Origin: a virus
Lineage: Duplodnaviria > Heunggongvirae > Uroviricota > Caudoviricetes
DNA: 37,261 bases
Virus record (IMG/VR): IMGVR_UViG_2711768064_000001
Location: 1-37,261 of that record
Direction: 5' to 3' (one strand)
Shown: positions 1 to 37,261 of the stretch, one piece after another
How the letters are laid out: each line of letters opens with the position of its first letter
Position numbering within the stretch: the first letter of the stretch is position 1
Program-made: the position numbers and the translations under genes
The notes under the pieces: model-generated
The model's input: only the letters and a program-made list of their open reading frames with translations
Database searches by the model: none
What the model was told of the DNA's origin: nothing

Positions 1-1185
1 TTAACCAGTTTTGATTTCCCCGTGTGGAACGACAATCCAATTAATGTGGTTTTGAGTGTAAATCTTAGTCGACTGAGCGTCGCTATGTGCCATTCGTCCT
101 TGGGGATCGATACCCTGCTGATCGAAAAGATGCGCTGCCAGAGCTCTGATTTCATGAAAGGTTGGTCTTTCATCCATCGGTAGATTGTCGCATAAACCTA
201 GCTTGTCTCGCGTTGCTGAAAACGATCGACTCAAATAGTCTGGTGCAACTTGTGTCGGATGTGAAACCTCTTTGCTTCGTTTAACTTGGCGTTCTGGGAT
301 TCTGTGAACGACAAACGGACTAGCCACATTATCTCGGCTATCGTCAATTATCCGTTTCAACTCTTCACCAATTGGTATTGCAACGTGTGACGCCTCTTTT
401 TTTTGCACTTTTTGCCTGTGGATGTAAAGCGTCCCATATATGCCATTTTGTGGTTGTTCGAACCAGACACATCCACATATACCGTCTTTAGGTTCGCGAA
501 TTGAGTAACGGATTCGCGATACTTCGAGTCGTGCATGTGTAGTTTGCAATGCTAGGTCCATTGCTGTTCTTAACCATGGTGCAGCGGCCTGCCTGATAGC
601 TATAAAATGCTCGAGTGACAGGCGCCGTCTTTTCTTCTCATCAGTCCTACGCATTTTTTTTCTGATGGCCGGGTTATCCAGCATTAGTGATTCATCGACC
701 GCATAAGAGAACAACTTTTTAAGAAAGCTGACCTTTCTGTTCTGCACATTTGCGGATGCGCTGGCATGATATTTGTTGATGTAGGTATTAACGTGTTCAA
801 GTTCGATATCGCATGCCGGAACATTTACGAAAAACGCTTTTACGCGTAGAGCGTCATTTTTCCAGTCATCTAAGGTGCTCTGGGAAGGACGTTCGTCTTC
901 GATAATCCGGGTCATTATGTGATCAACATGTTCAGCAAATGGTTTTGCTTCTCCGATAACACCGCCAGATTCTCTAATAAGATTTTCTACTGATGGAGAT
1001 AATTCTGCTCTCATCCTCAGGTTGTACTCTCTGGCGATTGCAATGGCTATTGCCCTATCCTTACCTATATTTTTCTTCTTTCCAGTAATAAGTGTGAATT
1101 TATAAACACCTCGATCTTTATCAAAAATCAGATAATCAGGAAGATGTCTGTATTCTTTTTTACGTGGCCTTGCCGCCATGGTCAC
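1..1185 (-). CDS. int: Tyrosine-type phage integrase
   Basis: 394-aa ORF, first gene at the prophage end, immediately followed by an excisionase-like ORF; C-terminal region with R/H/Y-containing catalytic-type segment (HEIRALAAHL...MAHSD...TKIYT). Confidence 0.88.
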   Translation of the reverse strand: MTMAARPRKKEYRHLPDYLIFDKDRGVYKFTLITGKKKNIGKDRAIAIAIAREYNLRMRAELSPSVENLIRESGGVIGEAKPFAEHVDHIMTRIIEDERPSQSTLDDWKNDALRVKAFFVNVPACDIELEHVNTYINKYHASASANVQNRKVSFLKKLFSYAVDESLMLDNPAIRKKMRRTDEKKRRRLSLEHFIAIRQAAAPWLRTAMDLALQTTHARLEVSRIRYSIREPKDGICGCVWFEQPQNGIYGTLYIHRQKVQKKEASHVAIPIGEELKRIIDDSRDNVASPFVVHRIPERQVKRSKEVSHPTQVAPDYLSRSFSATRDKLGLCDNLPMDERPTFHEIRALAAHLFDQQGIDPQGRMAHSDAQSTKIYTQNHINWIVVPHGEIKTG

Positions 1186-8154: not shown

Positions 8155-8952
8155 ATGAATAATCTGATGGTCATTGATGGTATTGAAGTTCGTCGTGATG
8201 CTTATGGGCGTTACAGCCTGAACGATCTGCACAGGGCTGCCGGTTCTCTGGATAAGCATAAGCCTGCATTCTGGCTCCGCAATGAGCAAACTGAACGTTT
8301 AATAAGCGAGTTGCAGATTTGCAACTCGGTCAATATAGAGCCAGTTAACGTTATTCGTGGCGGAAATAACCAGGGGACGTATGTCTGCAAAGAACTGGTG
8401 TATGCCTATGCAATGTGGATCAGCCCGTCATTCCATCTGAAGGTGATCCGTACTTTCGACATGGTAACCAGTGCACCTGAAAAATTATCCGGACAGGCTG
8501 CTGACAAGATGCAGGCTGGCGTGATTCTGCTGGACTTTATGCGCCGGGAGTTAAATCTGTCTAACTCTTCAGTGCTTGGAGCCTGTCAGAAACTTCAGGA
8601 GGCTGTTGGCTTACCGAATCTGGCACCGCGCTATGCCATTGATGCTCCTGCTGATGCACACGATGGCTCAAGTCGCCCGACACTGTCACTGAGTGCACTG
8701 CTGAAACAGTATGGTATCCGCCTGACGGCTAATCAGGCATATCACCAGATGGTGAAGCTGGGGATCGTCGAGCAGCGCGAACGATACAGCCGTACCGCGA
8801 TTAACAACATCAAAAAATTCTGGTCGCTGACAGCGAAAGGTTGCATGTTCGGCAAGAACATCACCAGTCCCGCAAATCCGCGCGAGACGCAGCCGCATTT
8901 CTTCGAATCCCGATTCCCTGAGCTGTTAAAGCTGCTCGATACCGTTCATTGA
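8155..8952 (+). CDS. KilA-N domain protein
   Basis: N-terminal KilA-N-like region; start at ATG 8155 preceded by GAGGAG. Confidence 0.65.
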   Translation: MNNLMVIDGIEVRRDAYGRYSLNDLHRAAGSLDKHKPAFWLRNEQTERLISELQICNSVNIEPVNVIRGGNNQGTYVCKELVYAYAMWISPSFHLKVIRTFDMVTSAPEKLSGQAADKMQAGVILLDFMRRELNLSNSSVLGACQKLQEAVGLPNLAPRYAIDAPADAHDGSSRPTLSLSALLKQYGIRLTANQAYHQMVKLGIVEQRERYSRTAINNIKKFWSLTAKGCMFGKNITSPANPRETQPHFFESRFPELLKLLDTVH

Positions 8953-8953
8953 G

Positions 8954-9949
8954 GTGACCGTGAGAGCACTACTGACCCCTGAAATTGCCCCGCGTATGGG
9001 GATCGTATTGTTCAGACCAGGTTCAGAGTTGATGCCCCTGTTTATGCAGGGGCGTGTCCTGCTGGAGCCTGAGCCGGAACGTTATTCATCTTTCGCCAGT
9101 GGTGCCGTTCCGGCAGCATCACAACCGCTGGCGGATGATCCTGCCGTTCGGGCCGTGTTCCGCAATGAGGCAGTGATCCGTCGTGCTGGTGGCGTGGAAT
9201 GTCTTGAAAGCTGGTTACTTCGTGAAAAGGGCTGTCAGTGGCCTCATTCCAACTGGCACAGCGAGAACATGACCACAATGCGACACGCTCCGGGCGCAAT
9301 CCGTCTGTGCTGGCACTGCGATAACCAGCTGCGCGATCAGTTCACGGAACGGCTGGAATCAATGGCAACGGATAACTGTGCCCGCTGGGTGTTATCTGTT
9401 GTGCGCCGTGATCTCGGTTTTGATGATAGTCACGTTGTGACAATGCCGGAACTGTGCTGGTGGCTGATTCGTAATGAACTGGCGGATGCCTTACCGGAAA
9501 GTGCAGCCCGTAAGGCACTGAGATTACCGAAGCCTGTTGTGCCGTCTGTCACCCGGGAAAGTGACCTTGTGCCTTCGATTCCTGCCACCAGCATCATCCA
9601 GGATAAAGCGAAAAAGGTGCTGGCGCTGAAAGTGGATCCGGAGTCGCCGGAGTCTTTTATGTTACGCCCAAAACGTCGCCGCTGGGTTAATGAAAAGTAC
9701 ACGCGCTGGGTTAAGACACAGCCGTGTGCATGTTGTGGAAAGCCCGCTGATGATCCCCACCACCTGATAGGCCACGGTCAGTGTGGAATGGGTACAAAAG
9801 CGCATGACCTTTTTGTGTTGCCTTTGTGCAGAAAGCATCACGACGAGCTGCATGCGGATACCGTGGCATTTGAAGAGAGGTATGGCTCCCAGCTGGAGCT
9901 GATATTTCGTTTTATCGATCGTGCGCTGGCAATTGGCGTGCTGGCCTGA
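8954..9949 (+). CDS. DUF968 family protein (YdfU-like)
   Basis: GTG start; C-terminal Cys/His-rich segment CACCGKPADDPHHLIGHGQCG...CRKHHDELH. Confidence 0.6.
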   Translation: MTVRALLTPEIAPRMGIVLFRPGSELMPLFMQGRVLLEPEPERYSSFASGAVPAASQPLADDPAVRAVFRNEAVIRRAGGVECLESWLLREKGCQWPHSNWHSENMTTMRHAPGAIRLCWHCDNQLRDQFTERLESMATDNCARWVLSVVRRDLGFDDSHVVTMPELCWWLIRNELADALPESAARKALRLPKPVVPSVTRESDLVPSIPATSIIQDKAKKVLALKVDPESPESFMLRPKRRRWVNEKYTRWVKTQPCACCGKPADDPHHLIGHGQCGMGTKAHDLFVLPLCRKHHDELHADTVAFEERYGSQLELIFRFIDRALAIGVLA

Positions 9950-9966
9950 TTTTGTGGAGAAAGTTG

Positions 9967-10341
9967 ATGCGTGATATTCAAATGGTTCTGGATCGTTGGG
10001 GAGCATGGGCGGCGAGTGATAGTTCAGGAGTAGACTATTCTCCTATAGCTGCTGGGTTTAAAGGGCTTCTTCCCTATACAAGCAAAACACGTCAGGCTTG
10101 TTCAGATAGTGATGCATTAATTATTGAAGGTTGTCTTGCTCTTCTTAAAAAGCGAAAACCGTACGAGCATTCTTTGATTGTGGCCCATTACCTGTATGGC
10201 ATCTCGAAAAGAAAGCTTGCAAGAGCTCGCAAAAAAGATGAGAAATTGATACGTATTGAAATGCAGATGGCTGAAGGGTTCATCGATGGTTGCCTTTCTA
10301 TGCTAGACATAACACTAGATATGGATGTTGAGATAAGTTAA
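9967..10341 (+). CDS. Late-gene antiterminator Q (Phage_antitermQ family)
   Basis: Start MRDIQMVLDRWGAWAA with GGAG RBS; located upstream of lysis genes. Confidence 0.7.
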   Translation: MRDIQMVLDRWGAWAASDSSGVDYSPIAAGFKGLLPYTSKTRQACSDSDALIIEGCLALLKKRKPYEHSLIVAHYLYGISKRKLARARKKDEKLIRIEMQMAEGFIDGCLSMLDITLDMDVEIS

Positions 10342-10415
10342 TTTATGCTCTGAAGTGTATACCCATGATGAGACTATATTTGTATCATGGGTATTCATAT
10401 ATACAGGAGGGTAAT

Positions 10416-11264
10416 ATGTCAAATAGGATATTTGATGCACTATACCGTGAGAAAATAGATATTTTTAAAAATTCTTTTTCCGCAACTTCAACTGAAGTTT
10501 TTTATGATCCTGAAAACAATCGTCTTATTCATGCTGGTGAATATGGAATATATCGTGAGTCGGTAGTAAGGGATTTTTTGAACTTTATAGTTCCTCAGCG
10601 ACTTGCTATATCTAATGGTTTTTTAATGTCCGCGATGGATGACATTAGCACGCAGTGTGATGTTGTTATTTTTGATTCTAAAATGACACCACTTTTTCAA
10701 GGTGGAGATAAACATAGGTTTTTCCCAATTGAATCTGTTTACTGCATTGGTGAGGTTAAGTCAAATTTATCTCGCGCTGCTTTTCGAGACGCCATTAACA
10801 AACTGGCGAAAAATAAAGCAATCGCCGAGAGAATAAAAAACCCTTCATTAAGTTTTAACTCTAGCAGTTTTAACTTTGATCCGGAAAACAACCCTTTTCA
10901 TGTTTATTCTAGCATATTGATCTGTAAGAAGCTTGATTTTGATATAAGCAATATAGAAAATGAACTAGATAATCTTTACTCTGATGAAATACAATTTAGG
11001 CATAGGCATAACCTAATCCTTAGTATCGAAGATGGGCTTCTTGCCTATTCAGCCCCGGATGGAGTGAAACTTCCATTCCCGATGCTTCGCCAGCAAAACT
11101 TTAAAAGTTGCTTCTTGACTCCAAAAGATGATGAATATTTCCACATGAAGTTTTTCGGTACATTTATGTTTATGTTAACCTCTGGTAAAATTTCCTTATA
11201 TCCTGAGTTCTCCGATTATATTTCACCAGTTCAAAATGGTGGAAGTGCTAGGGTTCAACTATGA
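10416..11264 (+). CDS. AT-rich moron protein with PD-(D/E)xK-like motif; candidate nuclease / defence protein
   Basis: 282 aa; ATG 10416 with AGGAGGG RBS; motif CDVVIFD...x26...ESVYCIGEVKS; flanked by hairpin upstream and terminator downstream. Confidence 0.65.
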   Translation: MSNRIFDALYREKIDIFKNSFSATSTEVFYDPENNRLIHAGEYGIYRESVVRDFLNFIVPQRLAISNGFLMSAMDDISTQCDVVIFDSKMTPLFQGGDKHRFFPIESVYCIGEVKSNLSRAAFRDAINKLAKNKAIAERIKNPSLSFNSSSFNFDPENNPFHVYSSILICKKLDFDISNIENELDNLYSDEIQFRHRHNLILSIEDGLLAYSAPDGVKLPFPMLRQQNFKSCFLTPKDDEYFHMKFFGTFMFMLTSGKISLYPEFSDYISPVQNGGSARVQL

Positions 11265-11419
11265 ACTTATTTAAAGATTGAATATAATAATGATTCTTTA
11301 TAGATGTCGAGCTGCATCTAATCTGGTAAAAAAGAATAAGAAATCCCTAGCGCGGTCCGCAAATCTTGTTGTACTGTGTTAAGATTGGTCACTTGGACAC
11401 GTACTTAAAAGATTTTAAA

Positions 11420-11441
11420 CCTCGCTTTGGCGGGGTTTTTT
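11420..11441 (+). terminator. Rho-independent terminator
   Basis: Stem CCTCGC/GCGGGG (one G-U), loop TTTG, T-run 11436-11441. Confidence 0.55.
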
Positions 11442-11488
11442 GCTTTATGGTGGTATTCATAACAGGCACCTAAATGAAAGGAGACTCC

Positions 11489-11710
11489 ATGGGGTTTTAT
11501 TACGTTTACCAGCATAAAGAAGAAGGTTTGGAAGTTGAGAAGCATCTTGTTGTTTCAGAAGAGTATCTTGATAGAGATAGCGCTAAAATGGCAAGGTTTA
11601 AGCATAGACTCAATGATAGGGGATGTGTATTCTCAGAAATTATTGAAGCCCCATCACCGCAAGAAGTGCTTCAAAAGGTACAGCCGGAATTGATGAGCCA
11701 CTGGATATAA
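11489..11710 (+). CDS. Hypothetical small protein (73 aa) in Q-lysis moron island
   Basis: ATG 11489 preceded by AAGGAG; AT-rich; own terminator downstream. Confidence 0.45.
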   Translation: MGFYYVYQHKEEGLEVEKHLVVSEEYLDRDSAKMARFKHRLNDRGCVFSEIIEAPSPQEVLQKVQPELMSHWI

Positions 11711-11732
11711 AAAAACTAACATCCAAATGTCG

Positions 11733-11755
11733 AGGTCGCTTATGCGGCCTTTTTT
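11733..11755 (+). terminator. Rho-independent terminator
   Basis: Stem AGGTCGC/GCGGCCT, loop TTAT, T-run; same stem as the terminator at 14642. Confidence 0.6.
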
Positions 11756-11802
11756 ATTCCCCTCATTCCTGAGAGGATTCACAGCAATTAAGAGGGGGCT
11801 AA

Positions 11803-12189
11803 ATGTCCGATCCGATTTCCGGTACTGGGCTGGCTGGTGGTGTCCTGACGGGGGCCAGCGTCTATGGATTTCTGTCCGGAACCGATTACGGCGTGGTCTT
11901 TGGCGCGTTTGCCGGGGCTGTATTTTACATTGCCACCACAGCGGACCTGAGTGCAGCGCGCCGTCTGGCATATTTTCTGGTGTCGTATATTGCGGGGATC
12001 CTTTGTTCCGGGCTGGTGGGTTCAAAGCTGGCTCAGGTTACTGGCTACAGTGATAAACCACTGGATGCCATTGGTGCCGTAATCGTTTCTGCTTTAGCCG
12101 TCAAAATCCTGACGTTCCTGAATAATCAGGATGTTGGCTCGCTGGTGGCGCTGATAACGCGCCGGGGAGGTTCAGGTGGTACTAAATGA
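11803..12189 (+). CDS. Holin
   Basis: 128 aa with three hydrophobic segments, first gene of lysis cassette. Confidence 0.7.
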   Translation: MSDPISGTGLAGGVLTGASVYGFLSGTDYGVVFGAFAGAVFYIATTADLSAARRLAYFLVSYIAGILCSGLVGSKLAQVTGYSDKPLDAIGAVIVSALAVKILTFLNNQDVGSLVALITRRGGSGGTK

Positions 12190-12457
12190 CCCATCGGCAA
12201 CTATCAATGCGTTACTCTGCGCTGGGGTAGTGCTGACCCTGATGTTTTACCGTCGCGGCGATTCGCGACATCGACCGTGGATATCTCGCTTAGCTTGGCT
12301 GCTTACGGTCATTTATAGCGCCGTACCGCTGGCGTATCTGTGCGGTATCTACCCTTATTCATCTTGGGCCACTATCGGGGCCAACATTATTTTCCTGTCT
12401 GTGCTTGTCGCCGTCAGAGGCAACGTAGCGCGGCTGGTTGATCATCTGAGGCACTAA
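12176..12457 (+). CDS. Second holin-like / antiholin-like membrane protein
   Basis: 93 aa, two hydrophobic segments, between holin and endolysin. Confidence 0.5.
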   Translation: MVLNDPSATINALLCAGVVLTLMFYRRGDSRHRPWISRLAWLLTVIYSAVPLAYLCGIYPYSSWATIGANIIFLSVLVAVRGNVARLVDHLRH

Positions 12458-12999
12458 TGACTAAAGACGATATCTTCAATGCCATCCTTGGCAAAGAGGG
12501 CGGCTATGTTAACCATCCCGACGATAAAGGCGGCCCAACGAATTGGGGTATCACTCAGGCAACGGCGCGGGCACATGGGTATGTAGGAGATATGCGCGAT
12601 CTCACCCGCCAGCAGGCGCTGGATATTCTGACGGCTGACTACTGGACAGGCCCGCGATTCGACCTTATTTCTGAGGTGTCACCAGCCATCGCCGCTGAAC
12701 TCTGCGACACGGGCGTAAACATGGGGCCATCGGTTCAGACCAAGTGGTTTCAGCGCTGGCTGAACGTGTTCAACATTCAGGGCACGCTCTATCCCGAACT
12801 GATTGCGGATGGTTTTATAGGTCCGCGAACTGTTAGTGCGCTAAAAAGTTACCTATCTCGACGCGGGAAAGAAGGAGAGCTGGTAATGCTCCGGGCTCTG
12901 AATTGCAGCCAGGGTCAACGTTATCTTGAACTGGCAGAACAGCGCAGCGCGAACGAGACGTTTGTTTATGGCTGGGTAAAGGAGCGGGTGGTTATATGA
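12457..12999 (+). CDS. Endolysin, glycoside hydrolase family 108 with peptidoglycan-binding domain
   Basis: N-terminal GGYVNHPDDKGGPTNWGIT motif typical of GH108 lysozymes. Confidence 0.85.
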   Translation: MTKDDIFNAILGKEGGYVNHPDDKGGPTNWGITQATARAHGYVGDMRDLTRQQALDILTADYWTGPRFDLISEVSPAIAAELCDTGVNMGPSVQTKWFQRWLNVFNIQGTLYPELIADGFIGPRTVSALKSYLSRRGKEGELVMLRALNCSQGQRYLELAEQRSANETFVYGWVKERVVI

Positions 13000-13265
13000 C
13001 GCTTGAGATGATTATCGGACTCCTTGCAGCTGTTTTAGCTGCTATAGCCGCCGCATTTGGATTAGGCCATTCGCGCGGCACCAGCAAAGCCGAAGCGAAA
13101 GCCAACCAGCAACGCACCGAAGAAAAGGCCGCTGCCACTGAAGCAGTGGCTGAACGCCGGGTAGAGACAACAAAAGGAGCCAGGGGTGTACAGCAGACTG
13201 TTAATCATCTTCCTGATGACGATGTTGACCGTGAGTTGCGCGAAAACTTTACCCGCAAAACCTGA
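12996..13265 (+). CDS. i-spanin (Rz-like)
   Basis: N-terminal TM segment, charged periplasmic region, position after endolysin. Confidence 0.65.
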   Translation: MTLEMIIGLLAAVLAAIAAAFGLGHSRGTSKAEAKANQQRTEEKAAATEAVAERRVETTKGARGVQQTVNHLPDDDVDRELRENFTRKT

Positions 13266-13401
13266 ATTAACGGACACAGCCTGTGACTGGGTGGACATTA
13301 TCTACCTCACTGAACACGATATTGCCGTGCTGGATAAGCAGACGAAGCGGGACATATTGGTGCACAATAAATCAGTGCAGGCTAACTGTGCAAAAAAATA
13401 A
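13186..13401 (+). CDS. o-spanin lipoprotein (Rz1-like), nested/overlapping with i-spanin
   Basis: Signal peptide with lipobox LTVSC; overlapping out-of-frame with i-spanin 3' end. Confidence 0.65.
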   Translation: MYSRLLIIFLMTMLTVSCAKTLPAKPELTDTACDWVDIIYLTEHDIAVLDKQTKRDILVHNKSVQANCAKK

Positions 13402-13508
13402 ATTGAAAATGAGAAATGAAAGTAGTAAATATGTGCCAAGCTGTGATGAAACCAGCAATGAAGCACGTTCATTAATCCGCATTCTCTGAAAAAGAGAAAG
13501 AATTATAA

Positions 13509-13535
13509 GCCTCGGTTTAATACCGGGGCTTTTTT
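13509..13535 (+). terminator. Rho-independent terminator after lysis cassette
   Basis: Stem GCCTCGG/CCGGGGC (one G-U), loop TTTAATA, T-run. Confidence 0.55.
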
Positions 13536-13686
13536 GTATCTGCATTTCACCGCGCACCGCAGCGCATTCAATCACGTCGAACCCAACCTTTTGGAATGAG
13601 CCTTTGAGGAGTTAGTTAGTGCTGGCGAGCCTCGACGGGCTGATCTCCTATGCGGCAAAGGTTCATCTCAAAGTAAGGTATACGCT

Positions 13687-14241
13687 ATGAACTACCCAAC
13701 AGTTGTTAACGGCATCGATTTCCGAGACCTGATTTTTGTAGCAAACAACGATCCGGTTACCGATTCGTTTATGGTGGCGAAAGCATTCGGTAAGCTGTCG
13801 AAAAACGTAGTTCGCGATATTGAACGGACCATAGACGCTTGCCCACCAGAGTTTGATACAAAGCTCAACTTTGAGCTTTGCTATAGAAACAATGAGTTAC
13901 AGAATGGAAAACCGCAGAAATTCTACCGACTCCGCAAGGATGGATTGATGCTTCTTGTCATGTCTTACACCAAGAAAGAAGCCATGCGGATCAAAATTGC
14001 TTACATCAATGCTTTCAATTGGATGTACGCGATGCTTCAAGTTGGCTGGCGTCAGTTTGAAGAAGAACGAAATGCAGTAATGCTGGAGTTCATGAAGGAG
14101 AAGGATGTGGCCAGTATGTCAGGCCGTCTTCTGAATCGTTGGGGTAGGGTGAAGAAGCCCGTCCTACTTGCGAAGATTGAGAGACTCGAAAAGCAAGGAC
14201 AGATCCCACTTCTCGGATTAACCAAAGCACTCACCGAATAA
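13687..14241 (+). CDS. Rha family phage regulatory protein
   Basis: N-terminal DSFMVAKAFGK...NVVRDIER matches Rha (Phage_pRha) signature. Confidence 0.7.
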   Translation: MNYPTVVNGIDFRDLIFVANNDPVTDSFMVAKAFGKLSKNVVRDIERTIDACPPEFDTKLNFELCYRNNELQNGKPQKFYRLRKDGLMLLVMSYTKKEAMRIKIAYINAFNWMYAMLQVGWRQFEEERNAVMLEFMKEKDVASMSGRLLNRWGRVKKPVLLAKIERLEKQGQIPLLGLTKALTE

Positions 14242-27602: not shown

Positions 27603-27980
27603 ATGGGTCTGTTACATGCCATTATAGGTAATGCCGGTGAAATTAATGCATCAGATGCACAACAGGAATTAGGGGCTGTTTTAGGTGAGGGAGAAAATGT
27701 CGAACTTGCCTATAAACTCATTCGTGACCAAATTATTCTGACTAACAGAAGGTTAATTTTTATTGATAAGCAGGGTGTCACAGGGAAAAAAGTCGAGTAT
27801 CGTTCGATTCCATATAAATCTGTGACAAACTTTTCTATTGAAACCGCCGGGCATCTTGATCTTGATGCTGAAATGAAGATATGGATTTCTGGTATTGCAG
27901 AACCGATAAAAAAACAGTTCAGTAAAGGAGCAAACATTTATAAATTGCAGGCCCATCTGGCTCAAAAAATAGCAGGGTAA
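27603..27980 (+). CDS. Moron protein, bacterial PH-domain-like
   Basis: 125 aa AT-rich ORF with AAGGGA RBS; segment ILTNRRLIFIDKQGVTGKKVEYRSIPYKSV resembles bacterial PH domains. Confidence 0.55.
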   Translation: MGLLHAIIGNAGEINASDAQQELGAVLGEGENVELAYKLIRDQIILTNRRLIFIDKQGVTGKKVEYRSIPYKSVTNFSIETAGHLDLDAEMKIWISGIAEPIKKQFSKGANIYKLQAHLAQKIAG

Positions 27981-30996: not shown

Positions 30997-31421
30997 TGGA
31001 ACTGTGGCTGACGGTGAACGGTAAACGCACCTGCGCCAGCGCACCGCTGGATCCGCTGACCCGCGCCGTGGTGATTTCCCTGTTTACCTGGCGGCGGGCG
31101 GAGCCTGATGACAACGCCGACGTCCCGATGGGATGGTGGGGGGATACCTGGCCTGCGGTACAGAATGACCGTTACGGCTCCCGACTGTGGCTGCTTCAGC
31201 GCAGCAAACTGACCAATCAGCTGGTGCAGACGGTAAGGGGGTATATCCGCGAATGCCTGCAATGGATGATTGATGACGGCGTGGTGTCCCGTATTGATCT
31301 GGATATTCGCCGCACCGGGATTAATGAACTGGGTAACAGTATCACTCTCTGGCGTCGTGACGGACCGGTAATGATTTCTTTTGATGATCTGTGGAGTGCG
31401 ATAACGCATGGCGGACAGTGA
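30993..31421 (+). CDS. Baseplate protein gp46-like
   Basis: Gene order, 142 aa. Confidence 0.65.
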   Translation: MMELWLTVNGKRTCASAPLDPLTRAVVISLFTWRRAEPDDNADVPMGWWGDTWPAVQNDRYGSRLWLLQRSKLTNQLVQTVRGYIRECLQWMIDDGVVSRIDLDIRRTGINELGNSITLWRRDGPVMISFDDLWSAITHGGQ

Positions 31422-32466
31422 ATTTCAGCGCCCGACGCTGGCAGAAAATATCAGTATGCTCCGTAACGATTTATTCGCCAGGCTGGACGTCAGCGACACG
31501 CTCCGGCGCATGGATGAAGACGTGCGGGCAAAGGTGTATGCGGCGGCGCTGCATACGGTTTACGGGTACATCGATTATCTGGCAATGAACATGCTGCCTG
31601 ACCTGTGCGATGAGTCCTGGCTGGCGCGACATGCTGCGATGAAACGGTGTCCGCGCAAGGGGGCCACGGCTGCCAGCGGGTATATGCGCTGGGAAGGTGT
31701 CAGCGATGGCCTGAAGGTGACTGCCGGGAGCGTGATTCAGCGCGATGACCTGGTTCAGTACACGGCAACTGCCGATGCAACCAGCTCCGGTGGTGTCCTG
31801 CGTGTGCCGATCACTTGCTCAACTACAGGCGCGGTCGGTAACGCTGACGACGGTACGGCATTAATCCTGGTCACGCCGGTGAATGGTCTGCCGTCTTCCG
31901 GTGTGGCTGACACCCTTACAGGCGGATTTGATACTGAAGAGCTGGAAACGTGGCGCGCCCGCGTCATTGAGCGGTATTACTGGACGCCTCAGGGCGGGGC
32001 TGACGGGGACTATGTCGTCTGGGCTAAAGAAGTGCCCGGCATTACCCGCGCATGGACATACCGACACTGGATGGGAACGGGGACTGTCGGTGTGATGATT
32101 GCCAGCAGTGACCTGATTAACCCCATTCCGGAAGAATCAACGGAAACGGCAGCAAGACAACATATCGGGCCACTGGCCCCGGTGGCAGGCTCTGATTTGT
32201 ATGTATTCAGGCCGGTGGCACATACGGTGGATTTTCATATCCGCGTGACGCCGGACACACCAGAAATACGGGCTGCCATTACCGCGGAGTTGCGTTCGTT
32301 CCTGCTGCGTGATGGTTATCCGCAGGGAGAACTGAAGGTATCGCGTATCAGTGAGGCGATTTCCGGTGCGAACGGGGAATACAGCCATCAGTTGCTTGCA
32401 CCGGTGGACAATATCTCCATTGCGAAAAACGAACTGGCGGTACTGGGGACGATTTCATGGACGTGA
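31408..32466 (+). CDS. Baseplate J-like protein (Mu gp47-like)
   Basis: 352 aa, gene order. Confidence 0.75.
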
Positions 32467-33041
32467 CAAACGATGATTACATCCGCCTGTTATCGGCACT
32501 GTTGCCGCCCGGTCCGGCGTGGTCAGCCAGCGATCCGGCGATTGCCGGTGCGGCACCGTCATTAACCCGTGTTCATCAGCGTGCGGATGCCCTGATGCGG
32601 GAGCTGGATCCGCGCACCACCACTGAACTGATAAACCGCTGGGAGCGTCTGTGCGGTCTGCCGGATGAATGTATTCCCGCAGGGACACAGACCCTTCGTC
32701 AGCGTCAGCAACGGCTGGATGCGAAGGTTAACCTGGCGGGCAGCATCAACGAGAATTTTTATCTTGCACAGCTTGCTGCCCTGGGCAGACCAGATGCCAA
32801 CATCACGCGATACGACAAAAGCACGTTCACCTGCTCATCGGTCTGTACTGACGCGGTGAATGCGCCGGAATGGCGGTATTACTGGCAGGTCAACATGCCA
32901 GCCGCCACAAACACCACCTGGATGACATGTGGCGATCCCTGTGATTCCGCGCTGCGTATCTGGGGCGACACCGTTGTCGAATGTGTGCTTAACAAACTCT
33001 GCCCGTCGCATACCTACGTAATTTTTAAATATCCGGAGTAA
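32457..33041 (+). CDS. Tail protein gp48-like (DUF2313)
   Basis: Gene order upstream of tail fibre. Confidence 0.6.
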
Positions 33042-33044
33042 TCC

Positions 33045-33791
33045 ATGCATCGTATAGACACGAAAACCGCGCAGAAGGATAAGTTCGGCGCGGGTAAGAA
33101 CGGTTTTACCCGTGGTAACCCCCAGACCGGCACACCTGCCACCGATCTGGATGATGACTACTTTGACATGTTGCAGGAAGAGCTTTGTGGCGTGGTGGAG
33201 GCATCCGGTGCCAGCCTGGAGAAGGGGCGAAACGACCAGTTGCTTACCGCGCTTCGTGCTCTGCTGTTAAGCCGCAAGAATCCGTTTGGTGATATCAAAT
33301 CGGATGGCACGGTGAAAACGGCTCTCGAAAACCTTGGTTTGGGAGAAGGTGCTCCAGCTATTGGCGTTCCGTTCTTCTGGCCCTCCGCGGCAATGCCAAA
33401 TACTGTAATCGACAGCTGGTCCGGTATGGTGTTTTTGAAGTTCAACGGGGCGAAATTTTCTGCCTCTAATTACCCTGTGCTGGCGAAAGTGTTTCCTTCG
33501 CTGGTATTACCTGAAGCCCGCGGTGATTTCATTCGTATCTGGGATGACGGGCGAGGTGCAGATGGTGGTCGCGAATTATTAAGCTGGCAGGAAGCTACAA
33601 ACTTTTCTCAGTTTGCCGGGAATATAGGCGGAGGTGCGGGACACGCAATTAACTTTCATGATGGCATCGCCGGAAATCAGCCAGGATTTTCACGATTTAA
33701 TTTCACCAGTAACTCTGTGGGTGATGGTGTGAGTTTTGTTGCTGTCAGACCGCGAAATATTACATTTAACTTTCTGGTGAGGGCTAAATAA
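33045..33791 (+). CDS. Tail fibre protein (constant N-terminal part plus variable C-terminal part in current orientation)
   Basis: Crossover site inside the gene at 33322-33347; followed by tail fibre assembly gene. Confidence 0.75.
33322..33347. other. gix/hix-like inversion crossover site (left)
   Basis: TTCTCGAAAACC-TT-GGTTTGGGAGAA; inverted copy at 35066-35091. Confidence 0.5.
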
Positions 33792-34384
33792 TGAAACCTG
33801 TTTTTGATGAAAATGGGCTGGCTACAGTGCCGGGCGATATGCGTTGTTTTTATTATGATGCTGAAACATCTGAGTATACGGGCTGGTCTGATGAATATAT
33901 TAATACTGGCGTAAGTATGCCCGCCTGTTCCACTGGTATTGACCCTGGCGAAAACATTCCGGGAAGAGTGGCAGTATTTACAGGTAAGGGATGGAGCCAT
34001 GAAGAAGACCATCGCAATGAGACTGTTTACTCAATCGAAAATGGCGCAGCTGTTACAGTGGATTATATCGGTGCCATCAAAGACGGTTATGTCACGATTT
34101 CACCGTTAACGCCATACGATAAATGGGATGGTGAGAAATGGGTGACAGACACTGAGGCACAACACAGTGCCGCAGTAGACGCGGCAGAAGCACAGCGCCA
34201 GTCACTGATTGATGCAGCAATGGCTTCCATTAGTCTGATTCAGCTGAAATTACAGGCCGGACGGAAACTGACTCAGGCAGAAACAACCCGACTTAACGCC
34301 GTGCTGGATTACATTGACGCGGTGACGGCAACAGATACCAGCACCGCGCCGGATGTCATCTGGCCTGAACTGCCGGAGGCGTAG
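33791..34384 (+). CDS. Tail fibre assembly protein
   Basis: 197 aa after tail fibre; conserved C-terminal Tfa-like region. Confidence 0.75.
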   Translation: MKPVFDENGLATVPGDMRCFYYDAETSEYTGWSDEYINTGVSMPACSTGIDPGENIPGRVAVFTGKGWSHEEDHRNETVYSIENGAAVTVDYIGAIKDGYVTISPLTPYDKWDGEKWVTDTEAQHSAAVDAAEAQRQSLIDAAMASISLIQLKLQAGRKLTQAETTRLNAVLDYIDAVTATDTSTAPDVIWPELPEA

Positions 34385-34784
34385 GCCATTCAATATCGGG
34401 TGCTGTTGACGTATCAACACGCATCAGCAGCACACGGTATTTCTTCCATTGGGTGAGAGTTGTAGCTTCTTCATAAGTTGCGATATCAGCATCAACAGCA
34501 TCCTGACGCCAGGATATTTCACTGTCAGCTTTTTCCCGTAATTGGGATTTTTTAACTTCAGCAATAGCTATTAATTCCTTTTTGGTCGGCTGAGGAATAT
34601 CTATCAGTGCTGGTTTTCCATTCAGTGTTCCAATCTGTTTTCCTGGTGGAATATCCATAAATAACTTTTTATGTTCTTCCTCACTGACTATTACACCATC
34701 ATCAGGCCACAGACCTGATGCCTCAAATTTTTCTTTCTCCGATATGGGGAAAAAGCCATTTGCTTTAGCGCTCCATACGTACAT
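34356..34784 (-). CDS. Alternative tail fibre assembly protein (inverted orientation)
   Basis: Minus-strand ORF whose C-terminus (VDTSTAPDIEWPTPP) parallels the plus-strand Tfa C-terminus (TDTSTAPDVIWPELP). Confidence 0.7.
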   Translation of the reverse strand: MYVWSAKANGFFPISEKEKFEASGLWPDDGVIVSEEEHKKLFMDIPPGKQIGTLNGKPALIDIPQPTKKELIAIAEVKKSQLREKADSEISWRQDAVDADIATYEEATTLTQWKKYRVLLMRVDTSTAPDIEWPTPPAVQAR

Positions 34785-34785
34785 A

Positions 34786-35121
34786 TCAATACCCCACCGC
34801 TATAATGTCCACATTAAATCCCCCGGGACCTGCCTGCCAGATGCTGGCCCCTGTTAATGATTTTGTTTGATGAACAACCGCCACATTTGCTGGTGATTGT
34901 GTTTCAGTTGTTACAGTACCGATATCATTCCAGTTAATTGAGATGGAATAGTTCGTTGTTGTAAACGACCGGGGGAAAGTTATGTGTCTTACATTGGTGC
35001 CAATAGGAAATCCAAGATAAACACGCTGAATTATCATTCCTCCAGGTAACATAACCCAGTTAGCACCTTCTCCAAAACCAACGTTTATGAAAATGCAGAA
35101 ATAACGAGCAAATGGCATCAT
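34786..35121 (-). CDS. Alternative tail fibre C-terminal segment (silent in current orientation)
   Basis: Minus-strand ORF adjoining the right crossover site; would fuse to constant tail fibre part upon inversion. Confidence 0.6.
   Translation of the reverse strand: MMPFARYFCIFINVGFGEGANWVMLPGGMIIQRVYLGFPIGTNVRHITFPRSFTTTNYSISINWNDIGTVTTETQSPANVAVVHQTKSLTGASIWQAGPGGFNVDIIAVGY
35066..35091. other. gix/hix-like inversion crossover site (right)
   Basis: TTCTCCAAAACC-AA-CGTTTATGAA, inverted relative to left site. Confidence 0.5.
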
Positions 35122-35147
35122 TCCTGCTTTTGTCAGGGGGATCTACC

Positions 35148-35276
35148 ATGCTTATTGGCTATGTACGCGTATCAACAAATGACCAGAACACAGATCTACA
35201 ACGTAATGCGCTGAACTGTGCAGGATGCGAGCTGATTTTTGAAGACAAGATAAGCGGTACAAAGTCCGAGACCTAG
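35148..35276 (+). pseudogene. Truncated DNA invertase (Gin/Pin/Hin-family serine recombinase, N-terminal 42 codons only)
   Basis: Encodes MLIGYVRVSTNDQNTDLQRNALNCAGCELIFEDKISGTKSET then stop; matches invertase N-terminus including catalytic-Ser region. Confidence 0.75.
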
Positions 35277-35371
35277 GGCTGACACTGCTGTTCTTGATGC
35301 AAATTAAAAGATTTAATAGTGAGTAGCGGCCTTACTAATGTAAGGCCGCTATAATCATTTTATTAATTGCA

Positions 35372-37261
35372 TTAATCGTGTTTTGGCCATACTTTCAATG
35401 CAATTTCCCCCAACTTTTTACCCCGCTCCAGGATTTCATCCTCATCCCATTTATCCTTAACTATAAGTGGAATGTTCAGTCGTAGATTGGTGTGGACGAT
35501 GAGAGCATCACGTTTTTTCAGAAATACAGCATTCTGAACAGAACGGTTTACGCTAAGGTTAAGCAAAGTTAGATTTCCCAAAGTAGCTATCGCTTGTTGC
35601 CGTTTCCATACCAGTAGCTGTTCAGGGGTAAGATCGGTTCCAGACAGAACAATTTGGTTCAATACCGTAGCATCTGAATTTGTCACCATACGACCATTTT
35701 CGAGAGGCCAACAGGAATACCAACTTTGAGGCATAAGATGATCGATATCGAGATTAGAAAGATTTGGAACATCAGGCTTTTCTGTCTTCACTTGGCGACA
35801 AAGTTCTCTTTCAAGTTCCGTTAACATTGAGCGCATTTTCGGTGCGTCGAGCCTGCCAGGATAAAGTGGAGCATTGATGCAAGCGTTGAGAAATTCTGAG
35901 TCACCAGGCCAACGTGAGGCTTCGCCATTTAAGTTATTGAGGATATTACGTAACTCAACACTGGAAATTTCCGTTTTAGCCAAGTGCCGCAATACATTCA
36001 TAAATACATTGTTGTAATTCTTTGGCGTCAGGCCACATACGGCTCTTCGTACTACGTAGGAGACAAGATCATTATACATGGCTGCTTTCTCATCATCAGC
36101 GATGTTAGCTATCGAAATGAACAAAGCAAGCGGATAAAGTGTCGTCACATCATAGTCTGCGATGCGATATCCAAAGTGTGAGATGGGGGTTGTGCCAAAA
36201 CCATCAACCAGTTCTTTATATTGTAATGCATATTGTTTGAGACGCTTTACTTGCAGATCTGCTCGTTGTGAAGACAAGTCCTTACTTACATAATCACGAT
36301 ACTCATTGTAAAGGCGAGACAGATCAATTTCACGCTGCCTTTCTGATTGCAATGTCGCATGTACTAGCCACTCCATGCGTGGTTTATTAATACGTCCACG
36401 GCGTTGCTTTTCCGACCAGTATTTATCTTCAAAGCTCTTCCACTCATTTTCATATAATTCAATAGCATTAATATTTTCATGCTCAGCGCACATAAAGATA
36501 TAGTTGCGAATAAGATCCGTGGCATGAAGTTCCGCCCCTCGCCCATTTAATGTTTCAAAAATTATTTGGGCATCATCTTCAGCTTCGAGAAATATGCTTA
36601 CCAGTTTCAGATCTGTTAAGACAGCCTCAATTAGAGCTACAGCATTTTCTTGTGGTGAGTGGTTTTCTATTTTAATCCATTTTATAAAGGCTTCAGTAAA
36701 AAAACATAATGCTTCTAGTGATGGCGGGTGATTAAAATGCTTACGCAACGTACCATGCTGCGTGAAACTATCAGAGAATACGTCCCGGAGATCATCAATA
36801 TTTTCAACATTAAAACTTTGAATAAAATGAGTTTGATCCCGAAAAGTTGGCCATAGTTTGAAGCGTTCTACTTCTTTATTTCGCATTGTGTCTTCGTTTG
36901 AGTTTTTCAGGCAAGGCGAAATGAGAGCCTCTAAGCTGAAAAGATCCGTAGCACGTAATGCTAATCGGATGGATGCCAGAACATATTGAAGAGTGGCCAA
37001 TCGTTGCTGACCATCAATAATATGTATGGAATCTACACCTAATAATCCTTTTTTTGATTGAGGTTCCAGTACAACCGCACCAAGGAAATGGGGAGTTGGT
37101 TTTGTACCCGAGAGCCGGGATTGTGCTTTCTCTAGGATATCCTCCAGTAGAGCTGACCATTGGTCTTGCTGAGTCCATACATAGGCACGTTGATAGAATG
37201 GAACACAGTATTGTCGGCGGTCTTGAAAAAGTTGTTGGACAGTTAGCGTCTCGGATTTCAT
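35372..37261 (-). CDS. GmrSD-like type IV restriction protein (DUF262 N-terminal, DUF1524 C-terminal)
   Basis: N-terminal CVPFYQRAYVW...IIDGQQRL motif (DUF262); C-terminal DIDHLMPQSW motif (DUF1524/HNH-like); AT-rich; start codon at window edge. Confidence 0.8.
   Translation of the reverse strand: MKSETLTVQQLFQDRRQYCVPFYQRAYVWTQQDQWSALLEDILEKAQSRLSGTKPTPHFLGAVVLEPQSKKGLLGVDSIHIIDGQQRLATLQYVLASIRLALRATDLFSLEALISPCLKNSNEDTMRNKEVERFKLWPTFRDQTHFIQSFNVENIDDLRDVFSDSFTQHGTLRKHFNHPPSLEALCFFTEAFIKWIKIENHSPQENAVALIEAVLTDLKLVSIFLEAEDDAQIIFETLNGRGAELHATDLIRNYIFMCAEHENINAIELYENEWKSFEDKYWSEKQRRGRINKPRMEWLVHATLQSERQREIDLSRLYNEYRDYVSKDLSSQRADLQVKRLKQYALQYKELVDGFGTTPISHFGYRIADYDVTTLYPLALFISIANIADDEKAAMYNDLVSYVVRRAVCGLTPKNYNNVFMNVLRHLAKTEISSVELRNILNNLNGEASRWPGDSEFLNACINAPLYPGRLDAPKMRSMLTELERELCRQVKTEKPDVPNLSNLDIDHLMPQSWYSCWPLENGRMVTNSDATVLNQIVLSGTDLTPEQLLVWKRQQAIATLGNLTLLNLSVNRSVQNAVFLKKRDALIVHTNLRLNIPLIVKDKWDEDEILERGKKLGEIALKVWPKHD

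Follow-up and report, generated by a model that had tools for sequence, protein, structure and literature searches.

A Din-family invertible tail-fibre segment in an Escherichia coli prophage with a truncated invertase gene, probably flipped in trans

Can an invertible DNA segment of a prophage still change orientation when its own invertase gene has been reduced to a stump? This question is raised by the tail-fibre region of the 37,261-bp stretch of DNA analysed here (the window), which represents a Mu-like-tailed E. coli prophage of about 37 kb inserted beside tRNA-Pro/yejM. That tail-fibre segments can invert, and that the Din-family invertases (Pin, Gin, Cin and Hin) can complement each other, has been known since the 1980s, and the P segment of the e14 element is the textbook E. 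coli case. An earlier note, made from the DNA letters of the window, had proposed a Gin/Pin-type invertible segment at this position. Its anatomy, its e14-matching sites, the in-frame alternative fibre of 193 aa that inversion creates and the occurrence of both orientations in nature agree with that proposal. As a complete Gin/Pin system the locus falls short: the segment and the family sites are there, and its own invertase gene is cut to 41 codons. We conclude that the locus is probably an e14-type P segment, that is, a non-autonomous member of the Din family that is flipped in trans. The coordinates of its parts are collected in Table 1.

Table 1. Features of the invertible tail-fibre locus (window coordinates)
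Feature	Position	Strand	Description
Tail-fibre gene, current assembly	33045..33791	+	248-aa ORF
Constant fibre N-terminal part	33045-33335	+	~97 aa
Left crossover site	33322-33347		26 bp: CTCTCGAAAACC-TT-GGTTTGGGAGAA; core TT at 33334-33335
Invertible segment	33336..35079		1744 bp between the two cores; 1746 bp from one core centre to the other
Variable fibre C-terminal part, collar-type	33336-33791	+	Tail collar PHROG matches
Tail-fibre assembly (chaperone) gene, currently expressed tip	33791..34384	+	TfaE-like; Caudo_TAP, phrog_105
Tail-fibre assembly gene, silent tip	34356..34784	-	TfaP-like; Caudo_TAP, phrog_188
Silent alternative fibre C-terminus	34786-35079	-	97 aa; gp53-like C domain (Pfam Gp53-like_C, 1e-5)
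Extended silent-tip ORF	34786..35121	-	Crosses right site; ATG at 35121 lies outside the segment, as in K-12 stfE
Right crossover site	35068-35093		26 bp: TTCTCCAAAACC-AA-CGTTTATGAAAA; core AA at 35080-35081
Invertase pseudogene (stump)	35148..35276	+	PinE-type serine invertase codons 1-41 (35148-35270), then a single foreign codon before the stop
Enhancer-homologous stretch (Fis-dependent recombinational enhancer, Din invertase genes)	35169..35232	within stump	Homology to K-12 pinE and Mu gin
GmrSD-family type IV restriction gene	35372..37261	-	On DNA replacing the 3' three-quarters of the invertase gene; marks the truncation, not part of the switch

Crossover sites and the fibre genes between them

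Two inverted, near-identical crossover sites had been described around this region, and both are present. Each is made of two imperfectly symmetric 12-bp half-sites flanking a 2-bp core, and the two cores are reverse complements of each other. Inversion requires such matching core dinucleotides at inverted sites. The left site had been located correctly but quoted with T instead of C as its first base, while the right site had been placed two bases off, at 35066-35091, with just 24 of its bases quoted. Compared with the corresponding e14 P-segment sites of E. coli K-12, which have been characterised by experiment, the left site is identical (26/26 bases) and the right site differs by one base (25/26), an A for C in its inner half-site. 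The inverted repeats reported for K-12, TTGGTTTGGGAGAAGG / CCTTCTCCCAAACCAA (PMC12529663), occur in the window with one change. The half-sites resemble those of Mu gixL and gixR, which were read from NC_000929 for comparison and have the same form, TTNTCNNAAACC; the earlier note had remarked on a likeness to gix/hix sites. A degenerate Din-site pattern matched twice in the 37-kb window, at the left and right sites, and never in 100 shuffles. A repeat search returned one 25-nt inverted repeat (33329-33353 / 35062-35086; 92% complementary), which takes in 5 nt of the outer half-site, the core, all of the inner half-site and another 6 nt past that. Inward from the core, 18 bp are inverted copies with one mismatch, a rough fit to the approximately 20 bp that had been said to adjoin the sites.

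The left site sits within the fibre reading frame, where it encodes ..ENLGLGEG.., and the constant part of the fibre gene is 96.6% identical to K-12 stfP at the nucleotide level up to the crossover. The 248-aa fibre matches PHROG tail-fibre families (phrog_1858, 2e-60), with residues 88-248 matching the 'tail collar' families phrog_523/6459, and its C-terminal part shares 40% amino acid identity with K-12 StfE. The assembly gene that follows it (Pfam Caudo_TAP, 2e-27; phrog_105, 8e-85) encodes a protein 65% identical to K-12 TfaE, and the one belonging to the silent tip (Caudo_TAP, 7e-32; phrog_188, 5e-53) a protein 33% identical to K-12 TfaP. These two genes overlap convergently by 29 bp. ORFs, Pfam and PHROG together bear out the claim that two alternative fibre C-termini and two assembly genes lie here in opposite orientations. 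When the segment is inverted in silico, the silent tip fuses in frame with the constant part to give a fibre of 193 aa, and this is WP_201618506.1, the exact protein annotated in genomes that carry the flipped segment. A sigma-70 promoter scan of 32900-35500 returned 0 sites against 3.8 expected in shuffles and is uninformative on expression of the minus-strand ORF or the stump.

With this arrangement, late transcription would read the constant N-terminus into the variable C-terminus that faces it at the time, together with the assembly chaperone of that tip. Exchange at the 2-bp cores would flip the 1.74-kb segment and swap the collar-type tip and TfaE-like chaperone, the pair expressed in the window, for the gp53-like tip and TfaP-like chaperone. 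Inversion would probably alter host range, because the locus is homologous to the Mu G, P1 C and e14 P segments and the exchanged C-terminal domains are of the receptor-binding type.

The truncated invertase gene and its surroundings

An invertase-like start lies directly beside the right site, as it does in e14, Mu and P1, and this placement is what an autonomous Gin/Pin switch, encoding its own invertase and flipping alone, would show. The gene ends after 41 PinE codons out of approximately 184, and the stump lacks the entire DNA-binding domain, with no HTH, as well as most of its catalytic domain. It matches a PHROG DNA invertase family (5e-30), and of the 145 positions of Pfam Resolvase it matches only 2-47. 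When K-12 PinE was compared with the window by tblastn, residues 1-44 alone aligned (95% identity). Homology to pinE ends at 35270/35271, up to which the 5' end is about 96% identical (96.1%) to that of K-12 pin. RefSeq labels the stretch 'recombinase family protein, incomplete, missing C-terminus'. No intact small serine invertase (about 180-190 aa, with a resolvase catalytic domain and a C-terminal HTH) is found adjacent to the sites, and apart from the stump the tblastn search with PinE found no second serine recombinase in the window. A match at 12164-12307 (E = 0.03) is spurious and sits in holin-like and lysozyme lysis genes. Against the missing gene body, the incomplete RefSeq record and the lack of a second enzyme in the window, the suggestive position of the stump counts for little; the sequence by itself refutes autonomous switching, to which we give almost no credence.

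The gene beyond the breakpoint has matches to Pfam GmrSD_N (7e-33) and GmrSD_C (2e-19) and a full-length PADLOC mREase_IV match of 1407 bits. This restriction-gene cassette has taken the place of the 3' part of the invertase gene, leaving the 41-codon stump. A hairpin is present at 35323-35352, between the stump and the GmrSD gene. In TUM12357, a differently truncated pinE is followed by an unannotated 365-aa gene, for which no Pfam or PADLOC family was found.

The part of the gene that was retained includes the region where the enhancer is expected. In Din invertase systems the enhancer is normally embedded in the 5' end of the invertase gene, some 100 bp away from one of the sites. The enhancer-homologous stretch of the stump matches K-12 pinE at every base and shows strong conservation with Mu gin. 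It contains two candidate 15-bp Fis cores (35169-35183 and 35218-35232), centred 96 and 145 bp away from the midpoint of the right site, with ATCTA..TAATG in between. Its position and size fit the Hin enhancer, which is 65 bp long, lies about 100 bp from a hix site and has ATTTA/TAATG between its Fis sites (PMC3798978), and by this homology the stretch is a putative Fis-dependent enhancer. As far as can be read from the sequence, both crossover sites and the enhancer-homologous stretch survive and the enzyme alone is missing. Because the cognate invertase gene is truncated, the segment is unable to flip itself, and because both sites and the enhancer-homologous stretch are intact, it would still be a competent substrate. 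A compatible serine invertase from elsewhere in the cell, for example a Pin homologue of another prophage, would then flip it in trans.

Both orientations in complete E. coli genomes

Among 5,426 complete E. coli genomes, queries restricted to the stump/GmrSD junction found the window orientation in 12 genomes and the flipped one in 8. The earlier note had held that its reading would fail if only one orientation was ever seen and site similarity was lost on proper alignment; the genomes contain both orientations. The whole 2.6-kb region (window 32900-35500) is present in the window orientation in six genomes at 100% identity and in one at 98%. The flipped form with the same stump/GmrSD junction occurs at 100% identity in B1S11 and MINF_2E, and also in VTB97448v. 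The B1S11 prophage occupies the chromosomal site of the window element and is 99.9% identical to it over 31.5 kb, with 18 substitutions and one gap, both flanks and the segment included. By blastn, 33329-35086 is inverted in B1S11, and this alignment piece overlaps the flanking pieces at both repeat arms.

Assemblers can collapse or mis-orient repeats, and cultures of mixed orientation can yield ambiguous graphs, so the differences in orientation could in principle be assembly artefacts. The 25-nt repeat is far shorter than the reads, the two orientations (12 against 8 genomes) come from complete-level assemblies of unrelated laboratories, and the pattern of single-base differences in the half-sites is exactly what a real reciprocal exchange yields. 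An artefact is thus highly improbable. That pattern also locates the exchange. At position 6 the inner half-sites differ (G/T), and this difference travels with the segment, while a C/G difference beside the core remains in place; hence the exchange took place within the 7 bp TTGGTTT that hold the core, the position expected of a serine invertase.

The same inverted repeat, 25 nt long and 92% complementary, might also have served RecA-dependent or illegitimate recombination acting with no site-specific enzyme. The 7-bp exchange interval is one of three identical stretches within the repeat, and the mapping taken alone is compatible with such an event. Those stretches measure 4, 7 and 12 bp, whereas efficient RecA substrates are far longer. 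Random exchange would moreover favour the 12-bp stretch, and the exchange fell in the one that holds the core. With the further points that Pin enzymes have been found experimentally to invert the same sites in trans (PMC12529663) and that the flipped state accompanies close pinE-like genes, general recombination is a very unlikely source of the flipped genomes.

These pinE-like genes were counted through chimeric queries, the counts being similarity matches per genome. The GmrSD part of the queries matches once per genome as a control, and for this reason the extra places represent genes resembling the 3' part of pinE. By megablast, close matches of this kind number 0 in the six unflipped genomes and 1, 2 and 2 in the three flipped ones; by blastn the count is 1 in unflipped against 3 in flipped genomes. 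Each of the six unflipped genomes has one more distant relative and no close pinE-like gene. K-12 pinQ was considered as an extra locus and rejected, as it has no blastn similarity to pinE and only 38% protein identity; accordingly, the counts leave out genes of the PinQ/PinR type. In strain 2196 two close pinE-like copies occur together with the window orientation, a combination that is compatible with a reversible switch and is uninformative. The association between the flipped state and pinE-like genes spans 10 genomes that are not phylogenetically independent.

The six genomes bear on whether inversion ended when the invertase was lost. Both orientations might already have been settled when the truncation arose, or homologous recombination might later have carried the stump/GmrSD module into prophages with the segment either way round. 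The six genomes, 100% identical over 32900-35500, all have the segment the same way round and none has a close pinE copy, and the stump/GmrSD junction is widespread, the GmrSD gene being found in about 300 genomes beside prophages in varied states of decay. The flipped B1S11 prophage, by contrast, is a near-identical relative with the same insertion site and breakpoint, and a single inversion is a more parsimonious account than either a second, identical truncation arising independently or a traceless recombinational import. The exchange also maps to the core interval, and close pinE-like genes are present in all three flipped genomes. We regard a switch fixed since the truncation as unlikely, if less so than the other alternatives above. 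With the six identical genomes uniform in orientation and free of close pinE copies, the window's own copy may be effectively locked.

Flipping in trans has precedents. Acting in trans, PinE, PinQ and PinR are each able to invert the e14 P segment of K-12 (Kirigo et al. 2025, PMC12529663), Fin of Fels-2 acts on the Salmonella H segment (cited in PMC12529663), and the e14 segment is found in both states in K-12 cultures (PMC4272514). At the window locus, too, a related invertase encoded elsewhere probably does the flipping.

Relation to known switches and meaning of the locus

The closest known system is the e14 P segment with PinE (stfP-tfaP, tfaE-stfE', pinE, mcrA). Besides the near-identical sites, constant fibre part and pin 5' end, the two loci share four genes in the same order and orientation, assembly genes that overlap convergently by 29 bp, the baseplate gene ymfQ upstream, and a type IV restriction gene downstream of pin, which is mcrA in e14 and GmrSD in the window. 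They differ in that the window invertase is truncated and in the variable modules, which are different alleles (identities given above for the StfE/TfaE-like pair and the TfaP-like chaperone); the gp53-like second tip has no detectable match in K-12 e14. The core-to-core distance is 1746 bp in the window against 1827 bp in K-12, and in the window it is the StfE/TfaE-like module that is expressed. The window element is a full-length 37-kb prophage at tRNA-Pro/yejM, whereas e14 is a 15-kb remnant at icd. The Mu G segment with Gin, and likewise the P1 C segment with Cin, follow the same logic (Sc-Sv-U, U'-S'v, invertase), with the crossover inside the fibre gene. In Mu, the baseplate genes gp47/gp48 lie upstream and gin shares conserved 5' sequence with the stump across the enhancer-homologous blocks. 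Mu differs in its intact gin, in its TC/GA cores where the window has TT/AA, and in a G segment of 3 kb with a longer fibre. The action of PinQ/PinR on the e14 P segment and of Fin on the H segment resembles what is proposed for the window in that a segment is flipped by the invertase of another prophage. In those cases the local invertase (PinE or Hin) is present and action in trans is redundant, whereas the window locus would depend on it.

The position that follows pin at the end of the prophage is a cargo site: two of the three alleles examined hold type IV restriction genes (mcrA in e14 and GmrSD in the window), and the third holds the 365-aa gene of TUM12357. The truncation retained both sites and the enhancer-homologous stretch, with a restriction gene placed alongside. 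A further reading, which we consider a long shot, is that the segment is a host-retained, trans-controlled switch instead of a decaying leftover, part of a prophage-end defence island whose state is set by invertases that other prophages encode, or that incoming phages such as Mu and P1 bring with them. An StfE2-like chimera has been reported to block T2 adsorption in K-12 (PMC12529663). If the defence-island reading were true, the frame initiated at 35121 would give an StfE2-like chimera after inversion, and the Gin or Cin of a superinfecting phage could toggle the resident switch.

As a switch flipped in trans, the locus belongs to an ordinary and well-known type of phage DNA switch and adds little to basic knowledge. 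Annotation would score it as a dead switch whose recombinase is a pseudogene, while the population data indicate that its orientation still changes. 'Orphan' invertible segments are for this reason not to be assumed fixed, and the state of such a segment may depend on the other prophages that share the cell.

Crossover sites and tail-fibre modules

The window is a prophage, and its gene set also includes terminase, portal, capsid, sheath, tube and tape-measure genes. The earlier note claimed that paired inverted crossover sites bracket two alternative fibre tips and two oppositely oriented assembly genes, and the arrangement was found as described. Two details of the sites needed correction: the left site begins with C rather than T, and the right site starts two bases later than proposed, its quoted sequence being two bases short. 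A degenerate Din-type site pattern (up to 3 mismatches) matches the 37-kb window only at the two crossover sites and matched in 0 of 100 shuffles; the pair is thus confirmed and is no chance match. In a repeat search the pair comes out as the region's highest-ranking inverted repeat, 25 nt long (33329-33353 and 35062-35086; 92% complementary). The left site lies within the fibre reading frame, and the right site is in the same frame on the opposite strand (..INVGFGEGAN..). When the DNA is cut at the cores and 33336-35079 is flipped in silico, an in-frame 193-aa alternative fibre results, followed by its own chaperone. By analogy with Mu and P1, and judging by the fibre-tip domains, inversion would be expected to affect host range.

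Coordinates of the features in the window
Feature	Position	Strand	Sequence or annotation
Integrase	1-1185		
Baseplate_J	31408-32466		Mu-type baseplate
Mu gp48/YmfQ	32457-33041		Mu-type baseplate
Fibre gene, 248 aa	33045-33791	+	PHROG tail fibre; 'tail collar' match on C-terminal half
Left crossover site	33322-33347		CTCTCGAAAACC-TT-GGTTTGGGAGAA (read from sequence 32800-36200)
Tail-fibre assembly gene	33791-34384	+	Caudo_TAP family
Second tail-fibre assembly gene	34356-34784	-	Caudo_TAP; convergent with the first
Silent fibre tip	34786-35121	-	In-segment part 34786-35079, 97 aa, Gp53-like C-terminal fibre domain
Right crossover site	35068-35093		TTCTCCAAAACC-AA-CGTTTATGAAAA (read from sequence 32800-36200)
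Enhancer-homologous stretch in the invertase stump	35169-35232		GTATCAACAAATGAC ... ATCTACAACGTAATG ... GTGCAGGATGCGAGC
GmrSD protein, 629 aa	35372-37261	-	PADLOC mREase_IV (type IV restriction), 1407 bits, full length

Such loci have been known for a long time; the nearest relative of this one is the textbook P segment of the E. coli K-12 cryptic prophage e14, which is flipped by PinE. The layout is the same: ymfQ, stfP and tfaP, then tfaE and stfE' on the opposite strand, then pinE and mcrA. The window matches the e14 sites, CTCTCGAAAACC-TT-GGTTTGGGAGAA and TTCTCCCAAACC-AA-CGTTTATGAAAA, at 26 of 26 and 25 of 26 bases. Nucleotide identity to e14 is 96.6% in the constant fibre part as far as the crossover (window 33352) and 96.1% in the pin 5' region (35066-35269), whereas the segment interior holds another pair of modules. 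The expressed tip shares 40% identity with K-12 StfE, its chaperone shares 65% with TfaE, and the chaperone of the silent tip shares 33% with TfaP. The G segment of Mu, flipped by Gin, follows the same logic with similar half-sites (gixL TTATCCAAAACC-TC-GGTTTACAGGAA; gixR TTCCTGTAAACC-GA-GGTTTTGGATAA), in keeping with the gix resemblance noted earlier. The slot downstream of pinE holds a type IV restriction gene in both, mcrA in e14 and the GmrSD cassette in the window. New in this copy are the other tip modules, the other prophage and insertion site, and the orphaned state.

The convergent assembly genes share 29 bp (34356-34384), the overlap length of K-12 tfaP/tfaE despite different alleles. 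Positions 34103-34418 are 93% identical to the 3' half of K-12 tfaE, with the orientation relative to pin reversed, and likely represent a module-exchange joint. Like K-12 stfE (MPFACYFFIFINVG..), the silent fibre-tip ORF has its ATG start beyond the invertible segment (MMPFARYFCIFINVG..); a promoter scan gave no consensus match for this ORF. After inversion, the ORF from 35121 would run into the collar-type tip, as an analogue of the K-12 'StfE2' chimera, which is reported to block T2 adsorption (PMC12529663).

The truncated invertase and its neighbouring cassette

The ORF beside the right site encodes MLIGYVRVSTNDQNTDLQRNALNCAGCELIFEDKISGTKSE followed by T and a stop codon, and corresponds to residues 1-41 of the 184-aa PinE. 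Its Pfam Resolvase match covers only profile positions 2-47 of 145, its nucleotide alignment with K-12 pinE is near-perfect as far as 35270 and breaks beyond, and RefSeq annotates it as an incomplete recombinase. The 3' three-quarters of the invertase are replaced by the GmrSD-bearing cassette (35271-37261). A tblastn search of the 37-kb window with PinE found no further serine recombinase; a weak match at 12164-12307 (PinE residues 4-53, 34% identity, E = 0.03), located in ORFs for small membrane proteins that lie shortly upstream of a lysozyme-like gene (12457-12999), was judged spurious. Because the invertase is truncated and the window contains no other serine recombinase, the locus cannot invert itself. 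An autonomous switch is refuted by the 41-codon stump and keeps practically no probability.

The Hin enhancer, 65 bp long and some 100 bp away from a hix site, has a Fis site at both ends, with ATTTA and TAATG tracts between them (PMC3798978). Across the homologous stretch, the stump and K-12 pinE are identical. The two flanking blocks of this stretch, whose centres are 96 and 145 bp away from the right-site centre, are the best-conserved parts of the Mu gin alignment, and the truncation breakpoint lies 38 bp past the stretch. This homology suggests that the stretch may function as an enhancer.

The GmrSD gene is present as one copy in each of about 300 of 5,426 E. coli genomes, and all copies inspected are at tRNA-Pro/yejM, adjoining the same 123-bp stump. 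A hairpin between the stump and the GmrSD 3' end (35323-35352; strong 13-bp stem, GTAGCGGCCTTAC..GTAAGGCCGCTAT, with a T-rich tail) is probably a bidirectional terminator that came with the cassette. In strain TUM12357 (L002, 7249-9079), a sister prophage is inserted at a different locus, near prfC. Its pinE is cut elsewhere, with 237 bp (~79 codons) left, and is followed by a gene for a 365-aa protein that has no Pfam or PADLOC family. Given this different cut, cargo exchange seems to recur in the DNA just downstream of pin and to clip the invertase gene repeatedly. Both truncations retain the enhancer-homologous stretch.

Both orientations and the position of exchange

The earlier note held the segment to be invertible, and both orientations, not one only, are found among 5,426 complete E. 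coli genomes. A 2.6-kb region that includes the stump/GmrSD junction is present in the window orientation in six genomes at 100% identity and in one at 98%. The version flipped in silico, with the same junction, matches B1S11 and MINF_2E at 100% and is also present in VTB97448v, whose fibre gene is disrupted by an inserted IS66 element. Junction-only queries (each made of 340 bp of one inner end, the stump and the start of the foreign DNA) gave 12 genomes in the window orientation versus 8 flipped; all 20 have an annotated partial recombinase and DUF262/GmrSD gene. Both states are also seen in relatives with intact or longer pinE. The B1S11 prophage occupies the same tRNA-Pro/yejM site as the window. 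Leaving aside a deletion linked to IS3 and an IS1 insertion, it shows 18 substitutions in 31.5 kb relative to the window (99.9% identity) and carries 33329-35086 in inverted orientation. That an assembly artefact accounts for the two states is scarcely credible. A frozen fossil, whose orientations were fixed earlier, is unlikely.

The prophage lineage is decaying in several hosts. B1S11 (L009) is without window 8432-14241 and has an IS3 element in its place, and its IS1 insertion lies at ~27692-27699, 8 bp common to both flanking alignments. In NC19 the left crossover site and most of the tail genes are gone, whereas the copy in the window looks full length.

The repeat arms differ at two positions: in the outer half-sites at the base flanking the core (C left, G right), and in the inner half-sites at position 6 (G left, T right). 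The flipped copies all keep the outer difference, whereas the inner one changes sides, which places the exchange within the 7 bp TTGGTTT, core included. A serine invertase, cutting with a 2-bp stagger, would be expected to give this result. The mapping is formally compatible with RecA-type exchange as well, but the identical stretches open to it are only 4, 7 and 12 bp, and we consider it very improbable.

Probable inversion in trans

Further pinE-like places were counted in each record with a chimeric query of a GmrSD anchor and pinE codons 49-184, which are not in the stump. Used by itself, the anchor gave exactly one match per genome. By blastn, there is one further place in each of the six unflipped 100% genomes and three in each of the three flipped; by megablast, there are none in the former and 1, 2 and 2 in the latter. 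Every carrier therefore contains one or more pinE-related sequences elsewhere, and in these nine genomes, a small and non-independent sample, close pinE copies occur in all those with a flipped segment and in no others. Strain 2196 (decayed, 98%, window orientation) has two further places by megablast. The counts leave out PinQ/PinR-type genes (38% protein identity, no nucleotide similarity). PinQ/PinR reportedly flip the K-12 P segment in trans, like PinE (PMC12529663), and K-12 cultures hold both e14 segment states together (PMC4272514).

The best-supported account, which we consider probable, is a non-autonomous Pin-type tail-fibre tip switch. It has lost its enzyme but kept its sites and enhancer region, and would be flipped by an enzyme acting in trans. 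A reading we consider unlikely is that the host uses the orphan switch together with the adjacent restriction gene as a defence module, in which foreign invertases would toggle the switch and the 35121 ORF would give a StfE2-like product. Obligatory flipping of an orphan segment in trans would be a small extension of known cross-complementation.
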